A stretch of DNA of 64,000 nt from assembly GCA_015064735.1 (NCBI GenBank), contig SVRP01000006.1, positions 38,037-102,036 on the forward strand, read 5' to 3'. Below the pieces are notes generated by a model. The model ran no database searches. It was not told where the DNA came from and saw only the letters and a list, made by a program, of their open reading frames with translations. This DNA comes from Oscillospiraceae bacterium. GTDB taxonomy: Bacteria; Bacillota; Clostridia; Oscillospirales; CAG-272. This document shows, one piece after another, positions 27,326 through 64,000 of this stretch (position 1 is the first letter of the stretch; each line of letters starts with the position of its first letter). The position numbers were made by a program, and so were the translations under genes.

Positions 27326-30300
27326 ATGGCTATTGAAAGAAAAAAACTGTCAATGGACGGTAACACAGCCGCGGCGCACGTTTCTTACGCGTTTACCGAG
27401 GTTGCTGCTATCTACCCCATTACCCCTTCTTCGGTTATGGCTGAGCTCACCGACGCTTGGTCCGCTACCGGATTGAAGAACATTATGGGTGAAACGGTAA
27501 AGGTTACTGAAATGCAGTCCGAGGCCGGTGCCGCAGGTACCGTTCACGGTTCTCTTGCAGCAGGCGCTCTTACCACCACCTACACCGCATCTCAGGGTCT
27601 TCTTCTGATGATCCCCAACATGTACAAGATCGCGGGTGAGCTTCTTCCCTGCGTTATCCACGTTTCCGCTCGTTGCGTTGCGTCTCACGCACTCAACATC
27701 TTCGGAGACCACTCCGACGTTTACGCTTGCCGCCAGACCGGTTTCGCAATGATGGCAAACACCAACGCTCAGGAAGTTATGGACCTCGGTGCCGTTGCTC
27801 ACCTCGCAACCATTAAGGGCAGAGTTCCTTTCGTAAACTTCTTCGACGGATTCCGTACTTCTCACGAGATCTCCAAGGTTTCCGTTTGGGACTACAAGGA
27901 TCTTGAGGAAATGGTTGACAAGGATGCGATCGCTGCATTCCGCGCTCGCGCTATCAACCCCGAGCATCCCGTTCTCCGCGGCTCCGCTGAAAACGGTGAC
28001 ATCTTCTTCCAGCACAGAGAAGCTTGCAACTCTTACTATGACGCTCTTCCCGCTATCGTTGAGGAGTACATGGATAAGGTTAACGAGAAGATCGGTACTA
28101 ACTACAAGCTCTTCAACTACTACGGTGCTCCCGATGCTGAGCGCGTAATCGTTGCTATGGGCTCTATCTGTGACGTTGCAGAGGAAGTTATCGACTACCT
28201 CCTCGCTAAGGGCGAAAAGGTTGGTCTCGTTAAGGTTCGTCTCTACCGTCCTTTCGTAGCCGCAAAGCTTATCGAGGCTCTTCCCAAGACCGCAAAGAAG
28301 ATCGCGGTTCTTGACAGAACCAAGGAGCCCGGCTCTCTCGGTGAGCCTCTCTACCTCGACGTTGTTACCGCTCTCGCTACTAACGGCGTCAGCGCAAAGA
28401 TCGTTGGCGGACGTTACGGTCTCGGATCTAAGGATACCACTCCCGCATCTATCTTCGCTACCTTCGAGAACCTCAATGCTGATGAGCCTAAGAACAACTT
28501 CACTATCGGTATCGTAGACGACGTTACCGGACTTTCTCTTGAGGAAAAGCCCGCTCCCGATACCGCTCCCACCGACATGATCCAGTGCAAGTTCTGGGGT
28601 CTTGGCGGAGACGGAACCGTTGGTGCAAACAAGAACTCCATTAAGATCATCGGCGACCACACCGACAAGTTTATTCAGGCATACTTCCAGTATGACTCCA
28701 AGAAGACCGGCGGCGTAACCATTTCTCACCTCCGTTTCGGAGACAGCCCCATCAAGTCTTCCTACTATATTAACAAGGCAGACTTCGTTGCATGCCATAA
28801 CAGCTCTTACCTTGCAAAGTATGACATGATCTCCGACGTTAAGCCCGGCGGAACCTTCCTTCTTGACTGCCAGTGGAGCGACGAGGAGCTTGACGCTCAT
28901 CTTCCCGCTTCGGTTAAGAGCTACATAGCAAAGAACAACATCAAGTTCTACACCATCAACGCAACAAAGCTTGCTCTCGACCTCGGTAACGGTAAGGTTA
29001 AGAACACCGTTCTTCAGTCCGCATTCTTTGCTCTCGCAAAGATCCTTCCCACGGCTGATGCTATCGAGTACATGAAGTATATGGCAACTAAGTCCTACCT
29101 CAAGAAGGGTCAGGCAATAGTTGACCTCAACCACAAGGCTATCGATGCAGGTAAGGATGCTCTTCATGAGGTTGCGGTTCCCGCAGCTTGGGCAAACGCA
29201 GGTGAGACCGCTCCCGCAGCTAAGGTTACCGGCGAGCGTCAGGATCTCGTTGATTTCGTCAACGACATCGTTCTTCCCGTTGTTGGAATGAAGGGTGATT
29301 CCCTTAAGGTTTCCGACTTCACAAAGTACGCTGACGGCACATTCCCCCAGGGCTCCGCAGCTTACGAAAAGAGAGGCGTTGCAGTATTCGTTCCCAAGTG
29401 GAATCCCGAAACCTGTATCCAGTGTAACAGCTGTGCTTTCGTATGTCCTCATGCGGCTATCCGTCCCTTCGCTATGAACGCTGACGAAGCAGCAAAGGCT
29501 CCCGAAGCTACCAAGTTCACCGCAAAGCCGGTTATGAAGACCGACTACAAGTTCACCATGGCAATTTCTCCTATGGACTGTATGGGTTGTACCCTCTGCG
29601 TAAAGGCATGTCCCGTTACCGCAAATTCCGCTAAGACCGGCAAGGCTCCCGCTATGGAGATGGTTCCGATCGCAACTCAGATGGATCAGCAGGCTCCCTT
29701 CGATTACGCAGTTGCTAACGTTTCCGAAAAGCCAGAGCTTATTAACGCAACCGTTAAGGGAAGCCAGTTCAAGCAGCCCCTTCTCGAGTTCTCCGGCTCT
29801 TGTGCAGGATGCGCAGAGACCTCTTACGCTCGTCTTATTACACAGCTCTTCGGTGAGAGAATGTATATCTCCAACGCTACCGGATGTTCTTCTATCTGGG
29901 GTGGCTCCGCTCCCGCAACTCCTTACACTGTAAACAAGGAGTCCGGCAGAGGTCCCGCATGGGCTAACTCCCTCTTTGAGGACAACGCTGAGCACGGTCT
30001 CGGTATGGCTCTCGGTCAGAAGACAATTCGCGAGAAGCTCATAGGCAAGGTTAAGGCGATGGCAGAATCCGACAAGGCTTCCGACGAGTTCAAGGCTGCC
30101 GCTAAGGCTTACCTTGATACCAAGGACAACGGCAAGGAAAACGAGGCTGCTACCAAGGCTCTTATCGCTGAGCTTGAAAAGGCTGCAGCACAGGGCTGTC
30201 CCACAGCTCCCGCGATCCTCGCTGAAAAGGATTACCTCGCTAAGAAGTCCATCTGGATCTTCGGTGGAGACGGTTGGGCATACGATATCGGATTTGGCGG

Positions 30301-30889
30301 TCTTGACCACGTTATCGCTTCGGGCGAGGACGTAAACATCATGGTATTCGATACCGAGGTTTACTCCAACACCGGCGGACAGGCGTCCAAGGCTTCTCAG
30401 ATCGGTCAGGTTGCTCAGTTTGCTGCAGCCGGTAAGGCAATCGGTAAGAAGGATCTTGCTCAGATCGCTATGTCTTACGGTTACGTTTACGTTGCTCAGG
30501 TTTCCATGGGCGCAGATATGAACCAGCTCCTCAAGGCTCTTACCGAGGCTGAAGCTTACAACGGTCCTTCCCTCGTAATCGGCTATGCTCCTTGTGAAAT
30601 GCACGGAGTTAAGGGCGGTATGCAGAACTGCCAGCTTGAAATGAAGAAGGCTGTTGAGGCAGGCTACTGGCAGATGTTCCGCTACAATCCTGCGGCAGAG
30701 GGCAACAAGCTTACCATAGACTCCAAGGAGCCCACCGGTAACTACGTTGACTTCATCAAGTCCGAAACCCGTTACGCTCGTCTCGTTCAGTCCTTCCCCG
30801 AAAAGGCAGAAGAGCTCTTCGCAAAGGGCGAAGCTAACGCAAAGGTTAAGTACGACAGACTTAAGAAGCTTGAAGAGCTTTACAAGTAA
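27326..30889 (+). CDS. nifJ: pyruvate:ferredoxin (flavodoxin) oxidoreductase
   Basis: YPITPS, MQSEAGAAG, GLGGDG, CIQCNSC/CMGCTLC ferredoxin motifs, GACAGC-like GSCAGC, GGDGWAYDIG, YSNTGGQ. Confidence 0.98.
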   Translation: MAIERKKLSMDGNTAAAHVSYAFTEVAAIYPITPSSVMAELTDAWSATGLKNIMGETVKVTEMQSEAGAAGTVHGSLAAGALTTTYTASQGLLLMIPNMYKIAGELLPCVIHVSARCVASHALNIFGDHSDVYACRQTGFAMMANTNAQEVMDLGAVAHLATIKGRVPFVNFFDGFRTSHEISKVSVWDYKDLEEMVDKDAIAAFRARAINPEHPVLRGSAENGDIFFQHREACNSYYDALPAIVEEYMDKVNEKIGTNYKLFNYYGAPDAERVIVAMGSICDVAEEVIDYLLAKGEKVGLVKVRLYRPFVAAKLIEALPKTAKKIAVLDRTKEPGSLGEPLYLDVVTALATNGVSAKIVGGRYGLGSKDTTPASIFATFENLNADEPKNNFTIGIVDDVTGLSLEEKPAPDTAPTDMIQCKFWGLGGDGTVGANKNSIKIIGDHTDKFIQAYFQYDSKKTGGVTISHLRFGDSPIKSSYYINKADFVACHNSSYLAKYDMISDVKPGGTFLLDCQWSDEELDAHLPASVKSYIAKNNIKFYTINATKLALDLGNGKVKNTVLQSAFFALAKILPTADAIEYMKYMATKSYLKKGQAIVDLNHKAIDAGKDALHEVAVPAAWANAGETAPAAKVTGERQDLVDFVNDIVLPVVGMKGDSLKVSDFTKYADGTFPQGSAAYEKRGVAVFVPKWNPETCIQCNSCAFVCPHAAIRPFAMNADEAAKAPEATKFTAKPVMKTDYKFTMAISPMDCMGCTLCVKACPVTANSAKTGKAPAMEMVPIATQMDQQAPFDYAVANVSEKPELINATVKGSQFKQPLLEFSGSCAGCAETSYARLITQLFGERMYISNATGCSSIWGGSAPATPYTVNKESGRGPAWANSLFEDNAEHGLGMALGQKTIREKLIGKVKAMAESDKASDEFKAAAKAYLDTKDNGKENEAATKALIAELEKAAAQGCPTAPAILAEKDYLAKKSIWIFGGDGWAYDIGFGGLDHVIASGEDVNIMVFDTEVYSNTGGQASKASQIGQVAQFAAAGKAIGKKDLAQIAMSYGYVYVAQVSMGADMNQLLKALTEAEAYNGPSLVIGYAPCEMHGVKGGMQNCQLEMKKAVEAGYWQMFRYNPAAEGNKLTIDSKEPTGNYVDFIKSETRYARLVQSFPEKAEELFAKGEANAKVKYDRLKKLEELYK

Positions 30890-30896
30890 TAATAAC

Positions 30897-30938
30897 AATC
30901 AGGTCAGCTCCGTTATGGAGCTGACCTGATTTATTTTT
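30897..30938 (+). terminator. nifJ terminator
   Basis: AATCAGGTCAGCTCC-GTTAT-GGAGCTGACCTGATT followed by T-rich tail. Confidence 0.85.
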
Positions 30939-31333: not shown

Positions 31334-33889
31334 TCAAGCGTTAACCGCGAGAATGCTCTTCACAAGCTCGCTATCCTTATTCTGAGACTTGACAGCAAGC
31401 TCATACAAGGAGGTCGTGTAATAGTTTTCGGTATAGATAACTATATTTTCTCCGGATTCGTTCGCATAAGAGATAAATCCGACTGCGGTAAGACGCACGA
31501 ATACCGCGTTAGAGTCTTCAACGGGGATATCCGAAATAGCGAACTTAAGGCTCTGATCGCCCTCACCCGTAATATCGGAAACCATCTTACCAAGCTCAAT
31601 ATAATCCACTCCCTCGGTAAGAGCGTCATCGTTAGCAATAATATCCTTGTAAGGTTCGGGAAGTATGCAAATTCCAACGGAAGCGTTCTCCCCAATATTA
31701 TCAAGTACTTCCTCGGATACGAATACGCCAAAGGCTATTCCAGCGGAGTCTCCGCTAATCTTAAGTCCCGCGCCCTGCACTACGGAGAAGCCGTCGCGAA
31801 TGTCAAACACGGATGCAACAACGTCTTCGGTAGCGTTAGTGTTGGTATACGTCTTGCCTGCCTCAATCAATTCTCCGCCTACGAGCCAAAATCCTGTCTC
31901 GTTATCGTGAAGCTTGATACCAGCCTTGGCGGTATTCGCGCCGATCTTCCATACAGCACCGTCATCGTTAACAGTCAGATTTCCACGCTCGTTCATAATA
32001 AACGAGTTCTGTGTCTTTTCCGCACCGTTGTTAACGTAAAGCTCAGCGCCCTCCGCAAGATTTATAGTAACCGTTCCGCCGATGTTCCTGAATATACCGC
32101 CGGTAGGTGTCGTCGTACCCGTGAAGTTAGCTATGAGCTTACTTGTTCCGTCGATTGTGATATTACAGGTGCTGGAAATGTCTGTAACGGCTGCCTTAGT
32201 GGGATTGAAGCAGAATACGTAGCTGGTCTCGGGATTGGGAGAGGTTGCGTTTCCGCCGACTGCCGTAATGGTAGAATTTTCAACGCTCAGATCTACCGAT
32301 GCGCTGGTATTCCACGGTACGCAAATAACACTGGTTGCAGCCGAGCCACCCGAGGATATTTCAGAATCCTTCACCTTAATGATGAAAGGCTCGTGCTTCT
32401 GATAGTCTGCACCGTTAGCCTGAGCGGCAAGTCTGAATACTGCGCCGGAGGGAGCGGTGATTGTACAGTTATCAACTGTAGTCGTTGAGCTTGCAAAATC
32501 CGAAACCCATGCGCCGTTCGTATACGGATCGTACTTGAATACGTCGGAAGTAGCGACATTCGCGATTTCAAGGTTCTTTACCGTCAGGTTATAAAGACCA
32601 ACATGCTCTGCAAATCCGGCTACGCAGGTAATCTTTACCTTACCGTCCGCCTTTGTTGCACCCTCAATAACTACGTTTTTGAGGTTTTCCTTATCATATG
32701 TGCCGCTGAATACGAGAGCACTTGTAAGAACATAATCATCAACAACAATGATTTTTTGACCGTCAGTCAGTGCATCAACAGCTTTCTGCAACGTAGAATA
32801 GGTTGCCACGTTATTACCGCTCGCATCGACTATCTTGAAGGGATCACCGCCCTCTGCAACGTATGCTTTGTGAGTCAGCACAACGTCTGCGGTTGCGGAG
32901 GTGTTTACGTAGGGATTAGAAACGATGTTATCACCATCAAACCAGGAGTGTTCATCGCCGTTTTCGGAAATGGTAGGAAGTGTTATTCCCTTTTTGGCAG
33001 CTTCTACGCCAACCACCCACTTCGCACCGTTGTCAACGATGGTGGTCTTGGAGTTCATATTAGCGGTAATGATGCCTGTACCTGCCACGCAATTATTAAC
33101 TGCGACAGTAGCGCCGTTTGCAAGGTTAAGAGCCAACGCTCCCGAAGCATCATGTCCGTGGAACATTGTTTTCATGTACTGACCATCCATCTTCAAAGAG
33201 GAAGTAGCGTCAAGATTTACTGTTACCGTTCCGGCAGTAAGAAGATTGAAACACGATTTGGTACTATCTCCGCCGTTTTCGGCTTTCGATGTTGTCAGAT
33301 TGATATCGGAATTTTGAATATTAAACGTAATATCACAATTTTTTGAGATATTGTTACCCGTTCTTGCGAAGGGCTCGTTGTTAGTAGTGTTAAGATTGAT
33401 TGTGGTATCCTTAATGTTGATATTCGCATCGGTTCCGTCGGGAAGAGCAATGCTGAATACCAAGCCGTAGGAGTCGTTTACCGTACAGTTCTCTATGTTA
33501 ACGGTTGAAAACTCGTTGTAGATAAAGCGAGCGCTGTTTACCTTAAGGTTTTTGACAGTAAAGGTATTATTTGCGTTTCCGCAAACATCAAATGCGTATC
33601 CGCCCGAGGTGGTCAAGGTATAGCCCTGACCGTCTACGGTCAGGCTCTTACTTGTAAAGGTTCCGTGTCCCGTATAGGAGGAATCTCTCAAGAGGACGAT
33701 TGTAGAACCGGAAGGTGCCTGGTTAAGGGCAGTCTTTACACTGGTATAGTAGGTTTTTGTGCCCTCACTATCCTCAGCATAGCATACGTTATTGGGGTCA
33801 AGCGCGGGATCATCCGCCGCAAACACCGCAAAAGGTATTACCGAGAGCAATAGCATAACCGTCAGGGCAATTGCAATTAATCTTTTCAT
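31334..33889 (-). CDS. large secreted protein with two beta-helix (pectin-lyase-like) units and a C-terminal beta domain
   Basis: Signal peptide MKRLIAIAL..FA; Asn/Thr-rich; duplicated N-cap YTSVKTAL..STIVLL / YSTLQKAV..QKIIVV. Confidence 0.7.
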   Translation of the reverse strand: MKRLIAIALTVMLLLSVIPFAVFAADDPALDPNNVCYAEDSEGTKTYYTSVKTALNQAPSGSTIVLLRDSSYTGHGTFTSKSLTVDGQGYTLTTSGGYAFDVCGNANNTFTVKNLKVNSARFIYNEFSTVNIENCTVNDSYGLVFSIALPDGTDANINIKDTTINLNTTNNEPFARTGNNISKNCDITFNIQNSDINLTTSKAENGGDSTKSCFNLLTAGTVTVNLDATSSLKMDGQYMKTMFHGHDASGALALNLANGATVAVNNCVAGTGIITANMNSKTTIVDNGAKWVVGVEAAKKGITLPTISENGDEHSWFDGDNIVSNPYVNTSATADVVLTHKAYVAEGGDPFKIVDASGNNVATYSTLQKAVDALTDGQKIIVVDDYVLTSALVFSGTYDKENLKNVVIEGATKADGKVKITCVAGFAEHVGLYNLTVKNLEIANVATSDVFKYDPYTNGAWVSDFASSTTTVDNCTITAPSGAVFRLAAQANGADYQKHEPFIIKVKDSEISSGGSAATSVICVPWNTSASVDLSVENSTITAVGGNATSPNPETSYVFCFNPTKAAVTDISSTCNITIDGTSKLIANFTGTTTPTGGIFRNIGGTVTINLAEGAELYVNNGAEKTQNSFIMNERGNLTVNDDGAVWKIGANTAKAGIKLHDNETGFWLVGGELIEAGKTYTNTNATEDVVASVFDIRDGFSVVQGAGLKISGDSAGIAFGVFVSEEVLDNIGENASVGICILPEPYKDIIANDDALTEGVDYIELGKMVSDITGEGDQSLKFAISDIPVEDSNAVFVRLTAVGFISYANESGENIVIYTENYYTTSLYELAVKSQNKDSELVKSILAVNA

Positions 33890-34369
33890 TGTCTTTTCTC
33901 CTTTCACTCCAGACAATTTTTATTATGCGTTTTTTGTGCATTTTTTCTTTCGAAAAAACCTCACGATAATTATACTATCTTCTGTACGTTTTGTCAATAT
34001 AATTTGAGTTTTTTCTGTATTTTTATGCATATTGCATATGTAATCTTGTATTTTTCGTGAATTTGCCCAAATTTAGGATTTTATTTTTAGTCAAAACATG
34101 ACATGTCCTGATGTGTAAAATGAATGTCATGTCCTTTGAGACAATTAAACAAGAGACCTTATATCGTAAAGGCATCTTTTTCATTCAACGTATCCTTTTG
34201 AGTGGAGAAAGCACCGCGGGGCAAAAAATGCAAGACGCTAAATTAGGATGCGACGGGAAAATCACCTACAACGGTGAACGTCGAAAAATTCCCGTCAACG
34301 TGTCATGCTGACGGAGGACGCGCAGAAAAAGTCAAGGCCTCCGACAACTGCCGATAGTTTTCTGCATAC

Positions 34370-57337: not shown

Positions 57338-60300
57338 TCAGCTGTCATATTTGCTGAGTGTTCCGTCGGTGCATCTTACTGTGTAATTACCGGAATTTGC
57401 CTTCCAATACTTATCCTTCTGTACTCCCGACCATTGCCCCACGGTTCCACCGTAGGAAATATCGGAAAGTCTGTTGCACCCGGAAAACGCATACCCGCCT
57501 ATATTTTCAAGCTGGCTACTCGCTCCAAGCGACACTCTCTTAAGATATTCGCAACCCTCAAATGCGCCCGCACCTATTGATTTAAGCGAGCCCGGAAGCT
57601 CTATACTCTCAATATCGCAGTTCCTAAAGGCATCGTTGGGAATGACATCAGCATCTGTTATCACGACGCTCCTAAGAGATGCCGGAACAGCAGGGGGCAT
57701 ATAAGAATTTGGAGCGTCATTAAATATATACCCAAAATGACTGTATTTCTCGGAATCCTTTGACACTCCCACAAAGGGAAGCGTAATGCTTTGGAGCCTA
57801 TCGCATTTGTAGAAAGCGCAATTACCTATACTTACAACGGTACTCGGTATTTTCACCTCCGTAAGACCGTTACACCTTGAAAAAGCATAGTTGCCGATCG
57901 TTTCAATGCCGTCCGAAATTTCTATTTCGGCAAGATTCAAGCATTCAGAAAATGCATAGCTGCCTATATTGCCTGACAGGGTTACTCTTTTAAGAGCGGT
58001 ACAGCCGGCAAACGCATAATTGCATATATATTCAACCCCATCGGACATATCAACACTCACAAGCTCGACACAACCGGAAAACGCATTTTGGGCTATCAGC
58101 CTTGCATCCTCATGAACCGTACATGACGTTATATAGTTATCCACGGGACATACAAGGACCGCGTACATATTCGTACCGGTTCCAAGATAATACGCGTTGT
58201 CGTATTTGTTAAATATACGGGTCGGACAATAAGCGAAAGCTTTCTTTCCTACGTCCACAAGCTTTATATTCTCGCCAAGTGTTACGGTTACAAGACAGTA
58301 ACAGCCTGAAAACGCTTCTTCTTCTATGCTTGTAAGGCTGCTCGGCAAATTTATATTCAAAAGAGCTGAACAGTCGGAAAAGGCAAACTTTCCTATACTC
58401 TCAAGTGCTGAACCGTCAGCTATATCTATCTGAACAAGTCCGCTGCAATTATTAAAGGTGTTTTTTTCGATGATTTTCACCCCACAGGGGATTTTAATGC
58501 TCTTGAGATTTTTGCAATTTGCAAAAGCAGTGTCTCCTATGCTCTCAAGATTGCTGCTGTCTGCTATATCTACCTGACTGAGTCCGCTACATCCGTAAAA
58601 GGCAAGAGCGCCGATAGATTTTACACTGCTCGGTATCTCTATGCTCTCAAGCAACTTACAACAATAAAAGGCGTTTTTCCCGATTTCCGAAAGCATGCTG
58701 CCTTCCTCAAAGCTAACACTCTTAAGCTTTTCCATCTCAAAAAATGTTCCTTCGCCGATATTCTTAAGGCTTGCGGGAAGCTTTATTTCCGAGAATTCAA
58801 TACAGTTTTCAAATACTCTACTACCAAGAATTTCAAGCTCCGAATTTTCGGCAAAGCTCAGTGTTTCAAGAGTTGAGCACCCGTTAAAAGCGTATGCTTT
58901 GATTTCCTTGACCTTTGCGGGAATTTCTATACTTTCAAGATTGGTACAACCGGCAAATACGCTCTCATTTATAACCGTAACACTGTTCGGTATTTCTATA
59001 CTCTCAAGGAAACCGCAATCACGGAACAGTCCGTTGCTCAGCTGTGTGAGCTTGCTGTTTTCGGCAAAGATTACAGTCTTAAGAAGCATACATCCCGAAA
59101 ATGCCGATTCGCCAATTGCTTCAACACTACCCGGTATCTCTATGCTCTCAAGCAATAGACATCCCGAAAATGCCGACTTGCCTATTGTTTTAAGTCCTGT
59201 CGGTAATATTATCCTTTCAAGCATCGAGCACTCCAAAAATGCCGATTCGCCAATATTCGTAAGGCTTGCGGGCAATACTATTTCCTCAAGACTCTTGCAT
59301 TTTGAAAATGCAAAGCCTCCAATACTGTCAAGCCTTCCGCTTTGAGGAAGATTTACCCACTTCAGATTATTACAGTTTGCAAATGCATTTAAACCGATGG
59401 ATTCAAGAGCTCCGTTATTATCAAAGGTTACAGTATGAAGCTTATTGCAATCCGCAAAGGCATTGGAGCCTATATTTATAATACTTTTGGGAAACATTAT
59501 ATCCAAAAGCCCATCACAGCCCCCAAACGCACCGTTACCTATATTCTCAAGCAAGCTATCCTCTGCAAAAACTACCGCCTTAAGATTATCGCAGTTGTTA
59601 AAGGCAAAATAATCAATATTCTTAACCGATGCGGAAATTTCTATTTTTTCAAGGCCGTCACACCCCTTGAATGCCATCTGACCGATATTCGTAAGTCCGC
59701 TTGGAAATTCTATATTTCTAAGAGACGTACACCCCGAAAAAGCTTCGCCGCCTATAGTTTCAAGTGCGCTGTTCTCGGCAAAGGTTACTGTTTCAAGGCT
59801 TGTGCAATCGGCAAAGGTGAGAACCCCGATCTCTTTGATGCTACCGGGCACCTCTATAGAAGTAAGACTCCCGCAGTTCTTAAATGCCTGATATCCTATC
59901 TCTGTTACACTGTCAGGAATATCTATCTCTGTAAGTCCCTTACATCCCAGAAAAGCTAACGTTCCTATTTTAGCAATACTGTCGGGAATAGATATACTTT
60001 TTACTGTTTCCAGATTTTTGAAGGCGTTGTTACCGATAGCCGCAACAGGAAGACCGTTATATTCGGACGGAATGACAATATCCGTATCATCACAGTCTCC
60101 GATACCTGTGAGAGTGTAGCTTTCATTGTCCGGATTCAATTCAAATAGGAGTCCTTTGGAATCGGGCAATACTTGACCCGGTCCCTCGCTACCCTTTTGA
60201 TCCGTATCTGAGATATCTGTGCTTTCATCTTGTAAAATATATTCTGTTATCGTTACATTCGGTTTTCTGAACGCAACAACAGCTACCGCAGCAATTACGG

Positions 60301-60343
60301 CAACAGTCAGAATCGCTACTAACAGCGCAACCGTCTTTTTCAT
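57338..60343 (-). CDS. BspA-type (LRR_5) leucine-rich repeat surface protein
   Basis: Some 30 repeats of IGxxAFxxCxxLxxIxIPxSV; N-terminal hydrophobic anchor; start at MKKTVA. Confidence 0.92.
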   Translation of the reverse strand: MKKTVALLVAILTVAVIAAVAVVAFRKPNVTITEYILQDESTDISDTDQKGSEGPGQVLPDSKGLLFELNPDNESYTLTGIGDCDDTDIVIPSEYNGLPVAAIGNNAFKNLETVKSISIPDSIAKIGTLAFLGCKGLTEIDIPDSVTEIGYQAFKNCGSLTSIEVPGSIKEIGVLTFADCTSLETVTFAENSALETIGGEAFSGCTSLRNIEFPSGLTNIGQMAFKGCDGLEKIEISASVKNIDYFAFNNCDNLKAVVFAEDSLLENIGNGAFGGCDGLLDIMFPKSIINIGSNAFADCNKLHTVTFDNNGALESIGLNAFANCNNLKWVNLPQSGRLDSIGGFAFSKCKSLEEIVLPASLTNIGESAFLECSMLERIILPTGLKTIGKSAFSGCLLLESIEIPGSVEAIGESAFSGCMLLKTVIFAENSKLTQLSNGLFRDCGFLESIEIPNSVTVINESVFAGCTNLESIEIPAKVKEIKAYAFNGCSTLETLSFAENSELEILGSRVFENCIEFSEIKLPASLKNIGEGTFFEMEKLKSVSFEEGSMLSEIGKNAFYCCKLLESIEIPSSVKSIGALAFYGCSGLSQVDIADSSNLESIGDTAFANCKNLKSIKIPCGVKIIEKNTFNNCSGLVQIDIADGSALESIGKFAFSDCSALLNINLPSSLTSIEEEAFSGCYCLVTVTLGENIKLVDVGKKAFAYCPTRIFNKYDNAYYLGTGTNMYAVLVCPVDNYITSCTVHEDARLIAQNAFSGCVELVSVDMSDGVEYICNYAFAGCTALKRVTLSGNIGSYAFSECLNLAEIEISDGIETIGNYAFSRCNGLTEVKIPSTVVSIGNCAFYKCDRLQSITLPFVGVSKDSEKYSHFGYIFNDAPNSYMPPAVPASLRSVVITDADVIPNDAFRNCDIESIELPGSLKSIGAGAFEGCEYLKRVSLGASSQLENIGGYAFSGCNRLSDISYGGTVGQWSGVQKDKYWKANSGNYTVRCTDGTLSKYDS

Positions 60344-60391
60344 CTCAGCATCCTCCTTTCCGGCATTTTGAATCATTAAATATATCTATTT

Positions 60392-61819: not shown

Positions 61820-61833
61820 CAGTTGAAATAAAA

Positions 61834-62040
61834 TTACGCTTCGATTACGTCGTCGTCATCCGCGTCAACGTCGCACTCATCGCACTCGTCGAGAAGATCG
61901 TCGCACTCATAAACGAGATCCTCGGTATATCTCTTAACGAGCTTATAGATGATAAATGCAATTACGCCAACAACTGCGATGCATGCAAGGCTTATAGCGA
62001 TAATTTTGCCGTAGTTAGTCTTCTTCTTTCTGAAAAACAT
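61834..62040 (-). CDS. small single-pass membrane protein with acidic Cys-containing tail
   Basis: AGGAGG RBS; RKKK, one TM, then ECDDLLDECDECDVDADDDD. Confidence 0.75.
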   Translation of the reverse strand: MFFRKKKTNYGKIIAISLACIAVVGVIAFIIYKLVKRYTEDLVYECDDLLDECDECDVDADDDDVIEA

Positions 62041-62184: not shown

Positions 62185-64000
62185 TCACCTTTTTTTGAAA
62201 TTTTTACGGCTTATAACCGCCTCTCCGCCGGTAAGAAGTATCATTTTTACGGCTGATGCGCTGAAATCCTGCGCTACAACACGCAGAGGTTTATCAAGAA
62301 CTCCTCTTCCAAGCACCTTGACACTTCCTACCTTTTGCCCAACGAGCTTCTTTTCCTTAAGAGAATTTAGGGTAACGGTATCCCCCGCATAAAACATTCG
62401 AGATATAGTATCTATATTTATTTCAGCCTTACGGGTTCCCTTGTATTCCTCGGTGCCGCCGTTCTCTTCACTTCGTCCTCTGTTAGCCTCCTCATCGCTC
62501 ATAAGCATTTCGGCTTCCTCCGCGCTTACGGAAGGCAAAGGAAGAGCAACAGAAAGCTCCTCGGCAAGCTCGGCTTCTTCGGTAATATAATTTTCCTCGC
62601 CGTCCGAGTTGTCTCCTTCGTACAGCTCCGCCGCCTCACGTTTTTCTCTTTCTGTGTCTGTCTCAGCAGAAGCTACGCTTTCGACTGCGCATGCAGCAAG
62701 ACATGGAACTGCCGATTCGGGAAGCTCCGCAATATCCGGAGCCGGCTTTTGCATTTTCTTTGCCGATATTTTCCGTTTCAGCTCCGCAATATCCGGCAAA
62801 AGGAGATAAGCTATGGCAAAAGAAAGCGCCACTGCGGCTGTTCCGAGAATGATCACTGCAGAAAGTCCGCCCTTTGGTGAATATTTCGCGCCGAGAATCA
62901 CGGGAATGAATCCCTCAAGAGCTATACCCTCTCCGTCCTGCTCATTCCTTTTCTTTCTTCTTGACACCACCGCGCAAAGTATCAGTATTTCGCATAAAAC
63001 AATAATGCAAAGGCATATTATCAAAGGCATAAGATTTACCCTTCCCTCGGTGATCACATAGTATTTTGAAAAGTGTCCGGTAGTAAAATCAATACTTGTG
63101 TCGATTGAGGTAACATCGTAAAATTCTGCCGTACCGTCATCTCTTACAAATACGATTCCGAGAATCTCAGACGTGTCCGTTCCCTCCGGAAGAAGAAACG
63201 ATACCTTATATTCTCGGCCATCTGCATAATAATCGGCTCCGAGACATATATCCACAGCCGCAAGTATATTGCAGTTTTTTATTTTCTTCAAAAGTGATTT
63301 CCTTAGTGAGCTTCCGTCAGAATAGAATATTCTTTTATTCTTTGCCGCCTTTCTGAGAATCTCATCTATATCCTCCGCATTTGTGTGAAAAATAGTCAAT
63401 ACGGCATCCGAGCTTATTCCTCCGGGGGAATATACCGTACCAACGTATCCGTTTTCCTCGGGTGAATATCCTTCGGGAGCAAGAAGCGCACCGTCTTGGG
63501 TAACCGTACCTCCCTCGGTATAAGCCCGGTCGGTATTCACTCCTCTGAGCAGCGCCTTTCTTTCTTCGGTGAATTTGCGGATTTCATCGGGTGTTACCGA
63601 GTCCTGAAGCCGTCCGAGCTCAAAGATAGAGCGATTATATATTTCCTCAAGCATAGCAAGCCCGTCCGCAGAATAACAGTCCTTTTTATTCAGAAGGCGA
63701 CCGTACTCGGCAAACAGAGCCTCTTTGCCCTCTCTTTTGGCGGTATCAACAAGATTTTCTATCTTTTTAATGTCCTCAAGAGCTTGGTCTCTCAGTACCT
63801 CATACTCGGATATATTCTGTGCTGCTTCAAGACCTTGCTCGAAGCTGTCTACAAGCTTAATGAGCGCCTCGTAATTTTCCTTGGAATATTCCGCTTTAGC
63901 TCCCACCCTTGACCTGACCTCATTTTTTACAGAAGCAAGACAGGTGTTTTTTTCTTCCTCTCTCGCCGTTTGTAAAATCGAATTCAGATCCTCAACCGCT
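62185..64000 (-). CDS. large surface/membrane protein with helical repeats, HFS motif, TM segments and C-terminal uL15-like domain (5' end beyond window)
   Basis: Frame checked open from 63906 to the window edge; C-terminal EINIDTIS..VTLNSLKEKKLV..VKVLGRGVLDKPLRVVAQDFSASAVKMI..GGEA matches the uL15 C-domain pattern. Confidence 0.85.
   Translation of the reverse strand, partial: AVEDLNSILQTAREEEKNTCLASVKNEVRSRVGAKAEYSKENYEALIKLVDSFEQGLEAAQNISEYEVLRDQALEDIKKIENLVDTAKREGKEALFAEYGRLLNKKDCYSADGLAMLEEIYNRSIFELGRLQDSVTPDEIRKFTEERKALLRGVNTDRAYTEGGTVTQDGALLAPEGYSPEENGYVGTVYSPGGISSDAVLTIFHTNAEDIDEILRKAAKNKRIFYSDGSSLRKSLLKKIKNCNILAAVDICLGADYYADGREYKVSFLLPEGTDTSEILGIVFVRDDGTAEFYDVTSIDTSIDFTTGHFSKYYVITEGRVNLMPLIICLCIIVLCEILILCAVVSRRKKRNEQDGEGIALEGFIPVILGAKYSPKGGLSAVIILGTAAVALSFAIAYLLLPDIAELKRKISAKKMQKPAPDIAELPESAVPCLAACAVESVASAETDTEREKREAAELYEGDNSDGEENYITEEAELAEELSVALPLPSVSAEEAEMLMSDEEANRGRSEENGGTEEYKGTRKAEINIDTISRMFYAGDTVTLNSLKEKKLVGQKVGSVKVLGRGVLDKPLRVVAQDFSASAVKMILLTGGEAVISRKNFKKR

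Follow-up and report, generated by a model that had tools for sequence, protein, structure and literature searches.

Known Systems and Comparison with the Locus

uL15 (RplO; PF00828, TIGR01071) is a small (~145 aa) soluble ribosomal protein whose gene lies in the spc operon, flanked by rpmD and secY. The N-terminal extension of uL15 is the source of most of its rRNA contacts and threads into 23S rRNA, and in the mature 50S subunit the uL15 site is already filled. The C-terminal half of the protein is a globular L15p/L18e domain, a fold that, to our knowledge, has otherwise been described only in ribosomal proteins, inside ribosomes. Here we describe a domain of this fold, referred to as the cap, which terminates a membrane protein of 1,243 aa whose gene lies partly in the window, the whole 64,000-nucleotide stretch of DNA that was analysed.

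A functional comparison can be made with YqjD, ElaB, and YgaM (DUF883) from E. coli, small C-tail-anchored membrane proteins that bind the 50S subunit with their N-terminus in the exit tunnel and inhibit translation (bioRxiv 10.1101/2024.08.16.608256). The general idea of a cytoplasmic module tethered at the inner membrane face is the same. The proteins are, however, unrelated in sequence and fold, and the 1,243-aa protein has no DUF883 match in Pfam. The latter is an exported surface protein with its module behind the transmembrane (TM) region, and ribosome binding by this module is putative.

The architecture resembles that of the S. aureus Ebh type, large Gram-positive surface proteins that feature a DUF1542/FIVAR-type helical ectodomain and a C-terminal membrane anchor. 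Like this type, the 1,243-aa protein starts with a signal peptide, has a long ectodomain rich in Ala and Glu and a TM region towards the C-terminus, and probably ends in a cytoplasmic tail; some of its homologues carry DUF1542. The 1,243-aa protein itself, however, has no DUF1542 that Pfam can detect, no internal repeats, and no visible LPXTG. We know of no uL15-like cap described for Ebh-type proteins. Inspection of the translation revealed no sortase-type LPXTG motif and, in contrast to LPXTG proteins, which end in a short basic tail, ~200 residues that include a folded domain lie past the hydrophobic region.

Gene and Architecture of the Product

The ORF (62185..>63999, - strand) leaves the window at its 5' side, and its first 639 codons lie past the window end. 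Independent contigs from ENA, JGI, and Logan provide the full gene (L001:5859-9590), which is a single unbroken ORF for 1,243 aa, and the window protein is a 100% match to the C-terminal 604 aa of this product. The parts of the protein are, in order, a signal peptide, a ~930-aa ectodomain, TM1 with the RRKKR run, a short hydrophobic segment with a YSPKGG turn, TM2 with a K/R cluster, a linker, a lead-in, and the cap (Table 1). The full-length translation and the hydropathy profile bear out the original prediction of a fusion to a membrane-anchored surface protein, which carries a signal peptide, and hydropathy and sequence agree with its membrane segments, one of which has RRKKR behind it. The protein had been called giant, but with 1,243 aa it is large rather than giant.

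Table 1. Features of the cap protein gene and its neighbour, with positions in the window
Feature	Coordinates	Strand	Basis
3' part (604 codons + stop) of the 3,732-nt gene for the surface/membrane protein	62185..63999	-	ORF list and translation
Membrane-proximal ectodomain segment (YKVSFLLPEG...HFSKYYVITEG)	63043..63210	-	Conserved in the closest subfamily (A1)
Transmembrane helix 1 (LMPLIICLCIIVLCEILILCAVV)	62965..63033	-	Hydropathy peak 3.3; AF2 helix 34-65 of the model
K/R cluster SRRKKR after TM1	62947..62964	-	Read from the sequence; basic run there conserved in A1
Short hydrophobic segment GIALEGFIPVILGA and turn KYSPKGG	62866..62928	-	A1 conservation
Last transmembrane helix (LSAVIILGTAAVALSFAIAYLLL)	62797..62865	-	Hydropathy peak 2.4; AF2 helix 86-126 of the model
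Second K/R cluster (LKRKISAKKMQK) right behind the last TM helix	62746..62781	-	K/R count
Acidic linker, probably disordered	62533..62745	-	Composition; AF2 pLDDT mostly 42-59
Lead-in: conserved motif SVSAEEAEMLMSDEEA (two short helices) and short connector	62431..62532	-	Alignments and AF2
Cap, uL15 C-terminal-domain paralogue	62209..62430	-	Pfam PF00828, PDB sequence matches, AF2, Foldseek
Basic C-terminal end RKNFKKR and stop	62185..62208	-	Translation; 7 residues at 62188-62208
Co-oriented 68-aa ORF, small membrane protein with acidic Cys-rich tail (…ECDDLLDECDECDVDADDDD…)	61834..62040	-	Conserved in closest relatives

The ectodomain is non-repetitive. No internal repeats were found in it by self-BLAST, so the predicted extracellular repeat region is not confirmed for the 1,243-aa protein, and no relatives of the ectodomain were found among solved structures. 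Some homologues have DUF1542, Big_3, or MBG repeats. In the membrane-proximal segment the HFSxYY motif is kept, with F15 and Y24 invariant in alignment A1, and AlphaFold2 (AF2) predicts short strands. The same alignment shows that a Glu in the middle of TM1 (E47) is nearly invariant.

The linker had been described as acidic and rich in Ala and Glu, which its composition upholds. Residues 1047–1150 (104 aa that comprise the K/R cluster, the linker, and most of the lead-in) have a net charge of −16 and contain 21% Glu and 16% Ala. The linkers of homologues can be aligned by composition only (A1), and across the family they contain 18% Glu, 12% Pro, and 11% Ala. The charge of the linker does not correlate with the charge of the cap (rho 0.10, p 0.38); since the two do not co-vary, there is no sign of an intramolecular acidic–basic switch. 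The two-helix lead-in VSAEEAEMLMSD lies ahead of the basic cap. Its motif, V(S/T)xEEAxxLxSD, is found ~20–35 residues before the domain and is conserved in all architectural classes (alignments A1, A2, and A4). AF2 models the lead-in as two helices (203–209 and 212–218) and a strand (220–222) with a pLDDT of 91–95.

The uL15-like Cap

The last 81 residues and the stop codon occupy 62185–62430 (-), and the C-terminal stretch ends in ...KAEINIDTISRMFYAGDTVTLNSLKEKKLVGQKVGSVKVLGRGVLDKPLRVVAQDFSASAVKMILLTGGEAVISRKNFKKR before the stop. The original prediction that the last ~80 aa are a uL15 C-domain is confirmed by four methods, and the match goes well past anything expected by chance. The Pfam profile PF00828 (Ribosomal_L27A) matches the cap over its full length (1–72/72) with an E-value of 1.5e-12 and 47–48 bits (48.1) against a cut-off of 21.5. 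A phmmer search of the PDB gives uL15/eL18 chains only, with best E-values of 4e-7 to 1e-5, and the best alignments cover residues 74–142 of S. aureus uL15. The AF2 model of the cap has a pLDDT of ~95 (94–97), and a Foldseek search of the PDB with the cap gives uL15 chains only at the top of the list, all with a probability of 1.00. In the Foldseek alignments the cap is ~30–36% identical to Bacillota uL15 chains. Additional searches with the family profile revealed that the nearest ribosomal proteins are uL15 of E. faecalis, S. aureus, Listeria, and B. subtilis (E 6e-15 to 5e-13, residues 67–143), compared with ~5e-4 to 1e-3 for Thermus and Pseudomonas (Proteobacteria) and 4e-6 for Vibrio. The cap is thus a true homologue of uL15 over residues ~67–143, copied from the globular C-terminal domain of a uL15 of the Gram-positive type and put to a new use.

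The cap and uL15 have the motif VK(V/I)LG.G.L.K.L.V.A..FS.SA and a GG in common. There are some differences, however, that distinguish the paralogues from the canonical domain. Nearly all paralogues have Asp in place of the Lys that precedes FS in the Bacillota uL15 sequences of the alignment, and the last helix, which reads EAxEAAGG in uL15, reads KMIxLTGG in the paralogues. The cap is also more basic, with a net charge of +8 in the 1,243-aa protein, compared with 0 for the C-domain of S. aureus uL15. Counted separately, the 70-aa core and the end piece have +6 and +4 in the 1,243-aa protein and +3.3 and ~+2 on average in the family, where a basic end is usual. Many relatives have the end motif S(P/S)ERGGKRK (A1).

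Judged from its sequence, the cap is probably not a working ribosomal protein, and it is not rplO. The homology with uL15 is one of sequence and fold in the C-terminal globular domain. The TIGR01071 equivalog scores 40.6 bits, which is below its cut-off of 77.95, and only profile positions 69–142 of 144 are aligned. The Gly/Arg/Lys-rich N-terminal half of uL15 is absent from the cap protein and the ~100 residues that precede the cap are acidic; the motif GKT.G[RK]G.KG was not found in the window or in any fetched locus. uL15 is soluble, whereas the cap terminates a membrane protein that has a signal peptide and TM helices, and it is preceded there by an acidic linker and by the two-helix lead-in that is specific to the family. 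The location of the gene away from the spc operon, as had been pointed out, holds: its neighbours are the 68-aa ORF, the adjoining mnmE, a gene for a BspA-type LRR protein, and ACT/DUF711 genes, and there is no rplO within the window or the fetched loci.

A Family of Cap-Tailed Membrane Proteins

The 604-aa window product gave no matches in the homologue search, and matches were obtained with the full-length 1,243-aa protein. A search of 1.84 billion proteins found 1,668 representatives at E ≤ 1e-3, of which 937 have E ≤ 1e-10, with lengths from ~100 to 6,312 aa. The domain is located at the extreme C-terminus in all of the best 150 representatives (150/150), and in the 1,243-aa protein it ends 7 residues from the stop. 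Precomputed PF00828 matches exist for 75 long proteins. Uncultured Clostridia and Anaeroplasmataceae from gut and rumen carry these proteins, and 80 loci all derive from uncultured Clostridia MAGs. At least ~900 clusters of membrane proteins (370 to 6,312 aa) terminate in this lead-in and cap, and their extracellular parts vary widely or are absent. Within the tails of the family, conservation is highest in the cap, with 57–89% identity among most long homologues and 51% at the lowest, a sign of selection on the cap. The 1,243-aa protein also has the other features of this family, with at least one upstream TM helix that is flanked by K/R residues towards the tail, and a linker rich in acidic residues or Pro.

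The short members (370–400 aa) feature a ~130-aa middle domain that has no counterpart in the 1,243-aa protein. This domain was modelled for the relative P0058 with a pLDDT of ~93, and Foldseek matches it to E. coli YjbR (2fki; E 3e-3, TM 0.58); the likeness to the MmcQ/YjbR-like fold concerns the short members only. By sequence, nothing significant was found for the middle domain in Pfam or the PDB. The YjbR family is annotated as DNA-binding.

Membrane-tethered proteins with a uL15 C-domain tail constitute a large family that is so far undescribed, and a full-text literature search found no paper on a tethered uL15-like module. In NCBI the long forms go by the name "uL15 family ribosomal protein", a label that is misleading and can inflate the counts of rplO-like genes in MAGs. 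The 1,243-aa protein and one short family member have no PADLOC match to anti-phage defence systems, and IMG/VR, searched for a phage origin, holds no relative of the protein.

Possible Role of the Cap

The best overall explanation, to which we assign a probability of about 0.6, is that the 1,243-aa protein has a membrane-tethered tail with a re-used uL15-type docking cap for a cytoplasmic partner, a mechanism that we infer from the anatomy of the protein. The signal peptide exports the protein, the ~930-aa ectodomain is displayed outside the cell, and hydrophobic segments with K/R clusters at their flanks hold the protein in the membrane. In the proposed mechanism, the K/R clusters would fix the anchor at the inner leaflet. 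The acidic linker may then project the cap off the anionic membrane, where the cap would dock its cytoplasmic partner. This docking would couple the surface protein, or in the short members a bare membrane anchor, to the cell interior. It is highly probable that the cap lies in the cytoplasm and serves there as a binding module. The nature of the partner is much more tentative. A protein is the candidate that we favour, at somewhat less than even odds, an RNA or a ribosomal particle is an unlikely one, and the remainder falls to something else. Once found, the partner would reveal how the carriers couple large adhesin-like surface proteins to the interior, and a ribosome as partner would add a new mode of ribosome tethering at membranes. 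With only ~115 residues including the lead-in and a well-folded predicted structure, the module lends itself readily to pull-down and structural tests.

The original prediction went further and proposed that the module could recruit ribosomes or 50S precursors to the membrane, or couple a surface cue to translation. The cap would then keep a uL15-like affinity for 23S rRNA, pre-50S, or 50S particles and hold them at the membrane, possibly for localised translation and export, or for storage or silencing like the E. coli YqjD/ElaB/YgaM anchors. We consider this unlikely. It is consistent with PDB matches that are all uL15 or eL18, with a cap more basic than the canonical domain and followed by a basic end, with the resemblance of the P0058 middle domain to YjbR by Foldseek, and with the existence of membrane-anchored 50S binders (bioRxiv 10.1101/2024.08.16.608256). 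RNA-modification genes also adjoin the gene in some lineages, mnmE here and RluA and AlaX elsewhere. The N-terminal Gly/Arg extension is absent, however, and the paralogues show the Lys-to-Asp exchange before FS and the change of the last helix to KMIxLTGG. In mature subunits, furthermore, the site of uL15 is occupied, and the carriers are mostly adhesin-like proteins unrelated to translation. The gene neighbourhood does not favour the ribosome either: there is no universal translation-linked neighbour, and no neighbour gene that would suggest a partner is common to all lineages. Three lineage-specific contexts were found instead, one with an ECF-S-like membrane protein, RluA, and AlaX, one with upp, DUF2188, and CobW, and one with SpoIVA upstream. 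Because the neighbourhoods vary by lineage, the RNA-related neighbours likely reflect lineage synteny. The function claim of the original prediction is therefore not supported by these findings. It is more doubtful still that, in a wider sense, about a thousand membrane-protein families of Firmicutes from gut and rumen use a ribosomal-protein mimic to tether ribosomal particles at the inner membrane face. If true, ribosome docking would represent a new route, at the level of the fold, by which translation is localised to the membrane or ribosomes are stored, and would span proteins from 370-aa anchors to 6,000-aa adhesins, including the 1,243-aa protein.

Membrane Topology

Docking of a cytoplasmic partner places the cap inside the cell, and there are some ambiguities regarding this point in the closest subfamily. 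Its members feature two clear TM helices after the signal peptide and one short ambiguous hydrophobic segment, and a strict two-helix reading would leave the tail outside the cell. Alignment A1 shows an invariant P85 and a conserved YxPxGG-like turn in the short segment, and AF2 gives a pLDDT of <50 for model residues 68–82. Owing to this low confidence we infer the topology of the segment, which may cross the membrane a third time over a short length or else form a re-entrant loop.

A run of K/R residues after a TM helix is a cytoplasmic marker by the positive-inside rule. The 1,243-aa protein has 5 K/R within the 15 residues past the last TM helix, and the family means in every class are 4.0–4.9 in the 15 residues after this helix and 0.5–2.5 before it. 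In the class B relative P0050, a signal peptide and an Ig/MBG ectodomain are followed by a single TM helix and RRGRR, and in the class C relative P0058 an N-terminal TM helix is the only one and is followed by RHKKHK; both arrangements put the cap inside. On the basis of the single-TM relatives and the K/R counts, the cap is most probably on the cytoplasmic side. The original prediction, which would not hold for an extracellular domain, stands in this respect, with some doubt left for the subfamily of the 1,243-aa protein.

The opposite arrangement, in which the tail of this two-helix subfamily exits the cell again and the basic cap helps to hold the protein in the envelope by binding teichoic acid or another anionic polymer of the wall, is very improbable. 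Two confident TM helices past the signal peptide, the poorly modelled segment between them, the basic character of the cap, and the lack of an LPXTG on inspection would all fit it. A ~50–60% identical cap, however, follows a single K/R-flanked TM helix in class B or an N-terminal anchor in class C, and both of these are inside. The loops after both TM helices of the 1,243-aa protein are also K/R-rich (RRKKR and KRKISAKK), which fits an odd number of crossings with the segment that carries the YxPxGG turn as the extra crossing. Additionally, Anaeroplasmataceae, which are wall-less, are among the carriers.

Integrity of the Gene and Its Neighbourhood

An artefact (an error of assembly, two genes joined by a frameshift, or a functionless rplO remnant in decay) might be suspected for a metagenome-derived gene that runs off the window, but it can practically be dismissed and was rejected, since the ORF is uninterrupted, separate ENA and JGI assemblies give the identical 1,243-aa product while further JGI and Logan contigs give its C-terminal 925 aa, the architecture is common to hundreds of homologues, and no other part of the protein is as well conserved as the cap.

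The 68-aa ORF is possibly co-transcribed with the gene. There is no terminator-like site between the two, and a 13-pair hairpin with a T-run is located behind the 68-aa ORF at 61820–61791. A link of this ORF to the cap is tentative. In L007 and L011, which are the two closest relatives, the ORF also comes directly after the gene, with 70–72% identity.

The surface-protein gene and its locus

The gene for the surface protein lies at the end of the window, and its translation ends in KAEINIDTISRMFYAGDTVTLNSLKEKKLVGQKVGSVKVLGRGVLDKPLRVVAQDFSASAVKMILLTGGEAVISRKNFKKR followed by the stop codon. The remainder of the gene was recovered from other contigs with the neighbouring mnmE: the full 1,243-aa gene is called at this locus in independent ENA and JGI assemblies, and its C-terminal 925 aa are also present on further JGI and Logan contigs. 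The 604 residues encoded in the window are identical to the C-terminus of the recovered product, and because the independent assemblies match as well, the gene and the fusion are real and an assembly artefact is ruled out. The original prediction of a uL15-like domain fused to a surface protein is borne out by this gene and by a family that shares the C-terminal placement. The neighbours are a 68-aa ORF, mnmE, a BspA-type LRR protein and an aminotransferase gene, with ACT/DUF711 genes upstream; the rpmD/secY context is not present around the gene, in agreement with the prediction that the domain is encoded outside the spc operon.

Features of the window discussed in the text
Feature	Position	Strand	Remarks
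Surface-protein ORF	62185..>63999	-	last on this strand; open at 5' end
uL15-like core	62209-62430	-	within predicted interval 62185-62430
Basic end	62188-62208	-	7 residues, within the same interval; then stop codon
68-aa ORF	61834-62040	-	directly after surface-protein gene
Terminator-like hairpin	61820-61791		after 68-aa ORF
BspA-type leucine-rich-repeat protein	57338-60376	-	1,012 aa; just downstream of mnmE
Pyruvate:ferredoxin oxidoreductase gene	27326-30889	+	1,187 aa; clear Pfam hits
Antisense ORF	27350-30898	-	1,182 aa, uninterrupted; no Pfam match
ORF	31334-33916	-	860 aa; no Pfam family at E<=1e-5

The surface protein begins with a signal peptide (residues 1-27) and an Ala/Glu/Leu-rich ectodomain of ~930 aa, which has no Pfam domain. 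Self-BLAST of the ectodomain gave no internal repeats, so the predicted extracellular repeat region was not found in this protein. Next to the membrane is a conserved segment that ends in HFSKYY and leads to TM helix 1, which has a nearly invariant Glu and is followed by SRRKKR, then to a short hydrophobic segment (GIALEGFIPVILGA) with a KYSPKGG turn, in which Pro is invariant, and to another clear TM helix, after which comes LKRKISAKKMQK. An acidic linker, which is probably disordered, connects this helix to a lead-in, SVSAEEAEMLMSDEEA, that is conserved and for which the model shows two short helices and a strand (pLDDT >90). The protein ends in the uL15-like cap, with a net charge of +8 counting the basic end.

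The cap and ribosomal protein uL15

PF00828 (Ribosomal_L27A) matches residues 1165-1233 over the entire profile (E 3e-12, 47 bits, cut-off 21.5). A phmmer search of all PDB sequences with the last 94 residues returned only uL15 and eL18 chains; uL15 of chloroplasts, S. aureus and B. subtilis gave the best matches, in which the tail aligns to residues 74-142. An AlphaFold2 model of the last 314 residues with 18 homologues has a pLDDT of 94-97 over the domain, and uL15 chains fill the top of the Foldseek list against the PDB with a probability of 1.00. The predicted uL15-like domain is confirmed by these results, which include the HMM and Foldseek checks proposed beforehand; both gave uL15. A family profile built from 24 diverse tails gives E-values of 6e-15 to 5e-13 with uL15 of E. 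faecalis, S. aureus, Listeria and B. subtilis, aligned over residues 67-143, and mycobacterial uL15 scores about equally, whereas Thermus and Pseudomonas (Proteobacteria) uL15 reach only ~5e-4 to 1e-3 and Vibrio 4e-6. This preference for Gram-positive proteins suggests that the cap is a copy of a uL15 of Gram-positive type, which fits an origin within Bacillota.

Judged from its sequence and gene context, the surface protein is not the organism's uL15. The uL15 (RplO) equivalog profile TIGR01071 gives 40.6 bits against a cut-off of 77.95 and aligns only at profile positions 69-142 of 144. The tail is without the Gly/Arg-rich N-terminal half of uL15, which threads into 23S rRNA; the ~100 residues preceding the domain have a net charge of -16, and the canonical N-terminal motif was not found in the window or in 86 fetched loci. 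The cap is more basic than the canonical domain: its 70-aa core has a family mean charge of +3.3 and its end piece ~+2 (+6 and +4 in the surface protein), compared with 0 for the S. aureus C-domain. Relative to aligned Bacillota uL15, the family has Asp in place of Lys ahead of the FS motif, and EAxEAAGG in the last helix is replaced by KMIxLTGG, whose new hydrophobic residues may be a packing site for the lead-in helices.

Family size, architecture and distribution

When the word search was limited to the last 94 residues, it gave one list of 50 proteins (736-2,077 aa) and another of 25 (372-978 aa), with 3 in common. All have PF00828; those that a source names are called 'uL15 family ribosomal protein', from Clostridia or Anaeroplasmataceae MAGs. 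An exhaustive phmmer search of 1.84 billion representatives with the domain gave 1,668 proteins at E<=1e-3, of which 937 pass E<=1e-10. With the same query, canonical uL15 reaches no more than 25-33 bits, which we estimate to be near or past the E cut-off at this library size, and the counts are therefore essentially paralogues. Among the best 150 matches listed, of ~100 (fragments) to 6,312 aa, the domain is at the extreme C-terminus in 150/150.

Three architectures are found. Class A, the type of the surface protein, has a signal peptide, an ectodomain, two or three hydrophobic segments and the tail. Class B has a signal peptide, Ig/MBG/Big_3/Flg_new ectodomains, one TM helix and the tail. 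Class C (370-650 aa) has an N-terminal TM anchor, an acidic linker, a conserved middle domain of ~130 aa, the lead-in and the cap. The cap is 57-89% identical among most long homologues (lowest 51%) while the linkers align by composition only, a pattern that points to strong purifying selection acting on the cap. Across the family the linker is acidic and rich in Pro (E 18%, P 12%, net charge -15 per 100 residues), and its charge does not co-vary with that of the cap.

With one genome per species, the distribution scan gave 80 loci, all of them in MAGs of uncultured Clostridia from gut, rumen or caecum, labelled Eubacteriales, Oscillospiraceae, Christensenella or Gallimonas; no relatives were found in viral contigs. 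Two loci of ~12 kb (L027 and L066) apparently hold two members each, so several paralogues would lie close together in some genomes.

Membrane topology

By the positive-inside rule, the K/R flanks of two homologues predict an unambiguously cytoplasmic cap in classes B and C: P0050 has a signal peptide, Ig-like ectodomains and one TM helix followed by RRGRR, and P0058 has an MTELQ start and a TM helix followed by RHKKHK. In all classes, the 15 residues past the last TM helix contain 4.0-4.9 K/R, compared with 0.5-2.5 ahead of it. The surface protein has a K/R cluster after each of its two TM helices, and an extra crossing is therefore required between them. The candidate is the conserved 14-residue hydrophobic segment with the YxPxGG turn, which is modelled poorly (pLDDT <50), and an extracellular cap is kept as a rival for this protein. 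A cytoplasmic cap has a probability of about 0.85.

Proposed role

A paralogue of the uL15 C-domain has been re-used as the cap. It is under strong selection, is invariably C-terminal and invariably follows a membrane anchor and a flexible linker, and the attached ectodomains are widely different or absent. We infer that the cap would act as a cytoplasmic docking module, which the acidic spacer would project off the inner leaflet and which would bind a partner. The original prediction was a ribosome or rRNA tether. Membrane-anchored 50S binders do exist, namely E. coli YqjD/ElaB/YgaM (bioRxiv 10.1101/2024.08.16.608256), but the uL15-tail proteins are unrelated to them in sequence and architecture. 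A tether is unlikely because the cap lacks the half that threads into rRNA, the uL15 site is already taken on mature subunits, the family has a charge-reversing substitution, and a translation-related gene context is not shared. Full-text literature searches found no paper on the module, which places a known ribosomal fold in a non-ribosomal setting that is very widespread and undescribed.

The cytoplasmic middle domain of class C (P0058 and relatives, family alignment A3) has the consensus ..RY..SF.AKLIQS...Y..L.N...SY..VK.R.SW..E...GR.....KGK.L.V..AL.P.....TKY...D.S.VKR...VP.L.KI.S.R. and is modelled with a pLDDT of ~93. Ribosomal proteins aside, E. coli YjbR ranks first among its Foldseek matches (2fki; E 3e-3, TM 0.58); no sequence-level support for this likeness and no Pfam family were found.

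Gene neighbourhoods and other features of the window

Neighbourhoods are lineage-specific with no universal neighbour, and PADLOC gave no matches. The downstream genes in one large lineage encode an ECF-S-like membrane protein, RluA and AlaX; in Christensenella-labelled MAGs, upp is upstream, and genes for DUF2188 and CobW are downstream. In six loci of Gallimonas-labelled and other Clostridia MAGs (L072, L074, L076, L083, L085, L086), a 488-aa ORF lies immediately upstream, which we take from its sequence to be the sporulation ATPase SpoIVA. In the surface-protein lineage, a 68-aa membrane ORF and mnmE lie downstream. In the 68-aa product, a basic N-terminus is followed by a single TM helix and a tail that is acidic and rich in Cys (ECDDLLDECDECDVDADDDD); the two closest relatives, L007 and L011, conserve the ORF in this position with 70-72% identity. 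No terminator-like hairpin separates it from the upstream surface-protein gene, and it may be a co-transcribed partner.

The BspA-type protein, which has no Pfam hit in the precomputed tables, matches Pfam LRR_5 (697 bits, 8 stretches) and is a putative second large surface protein of the neighbourhood. The unusually long ORF antisense to the pyruvate:ferredoxin oxidoreductase gene is probably a shadow ORF.
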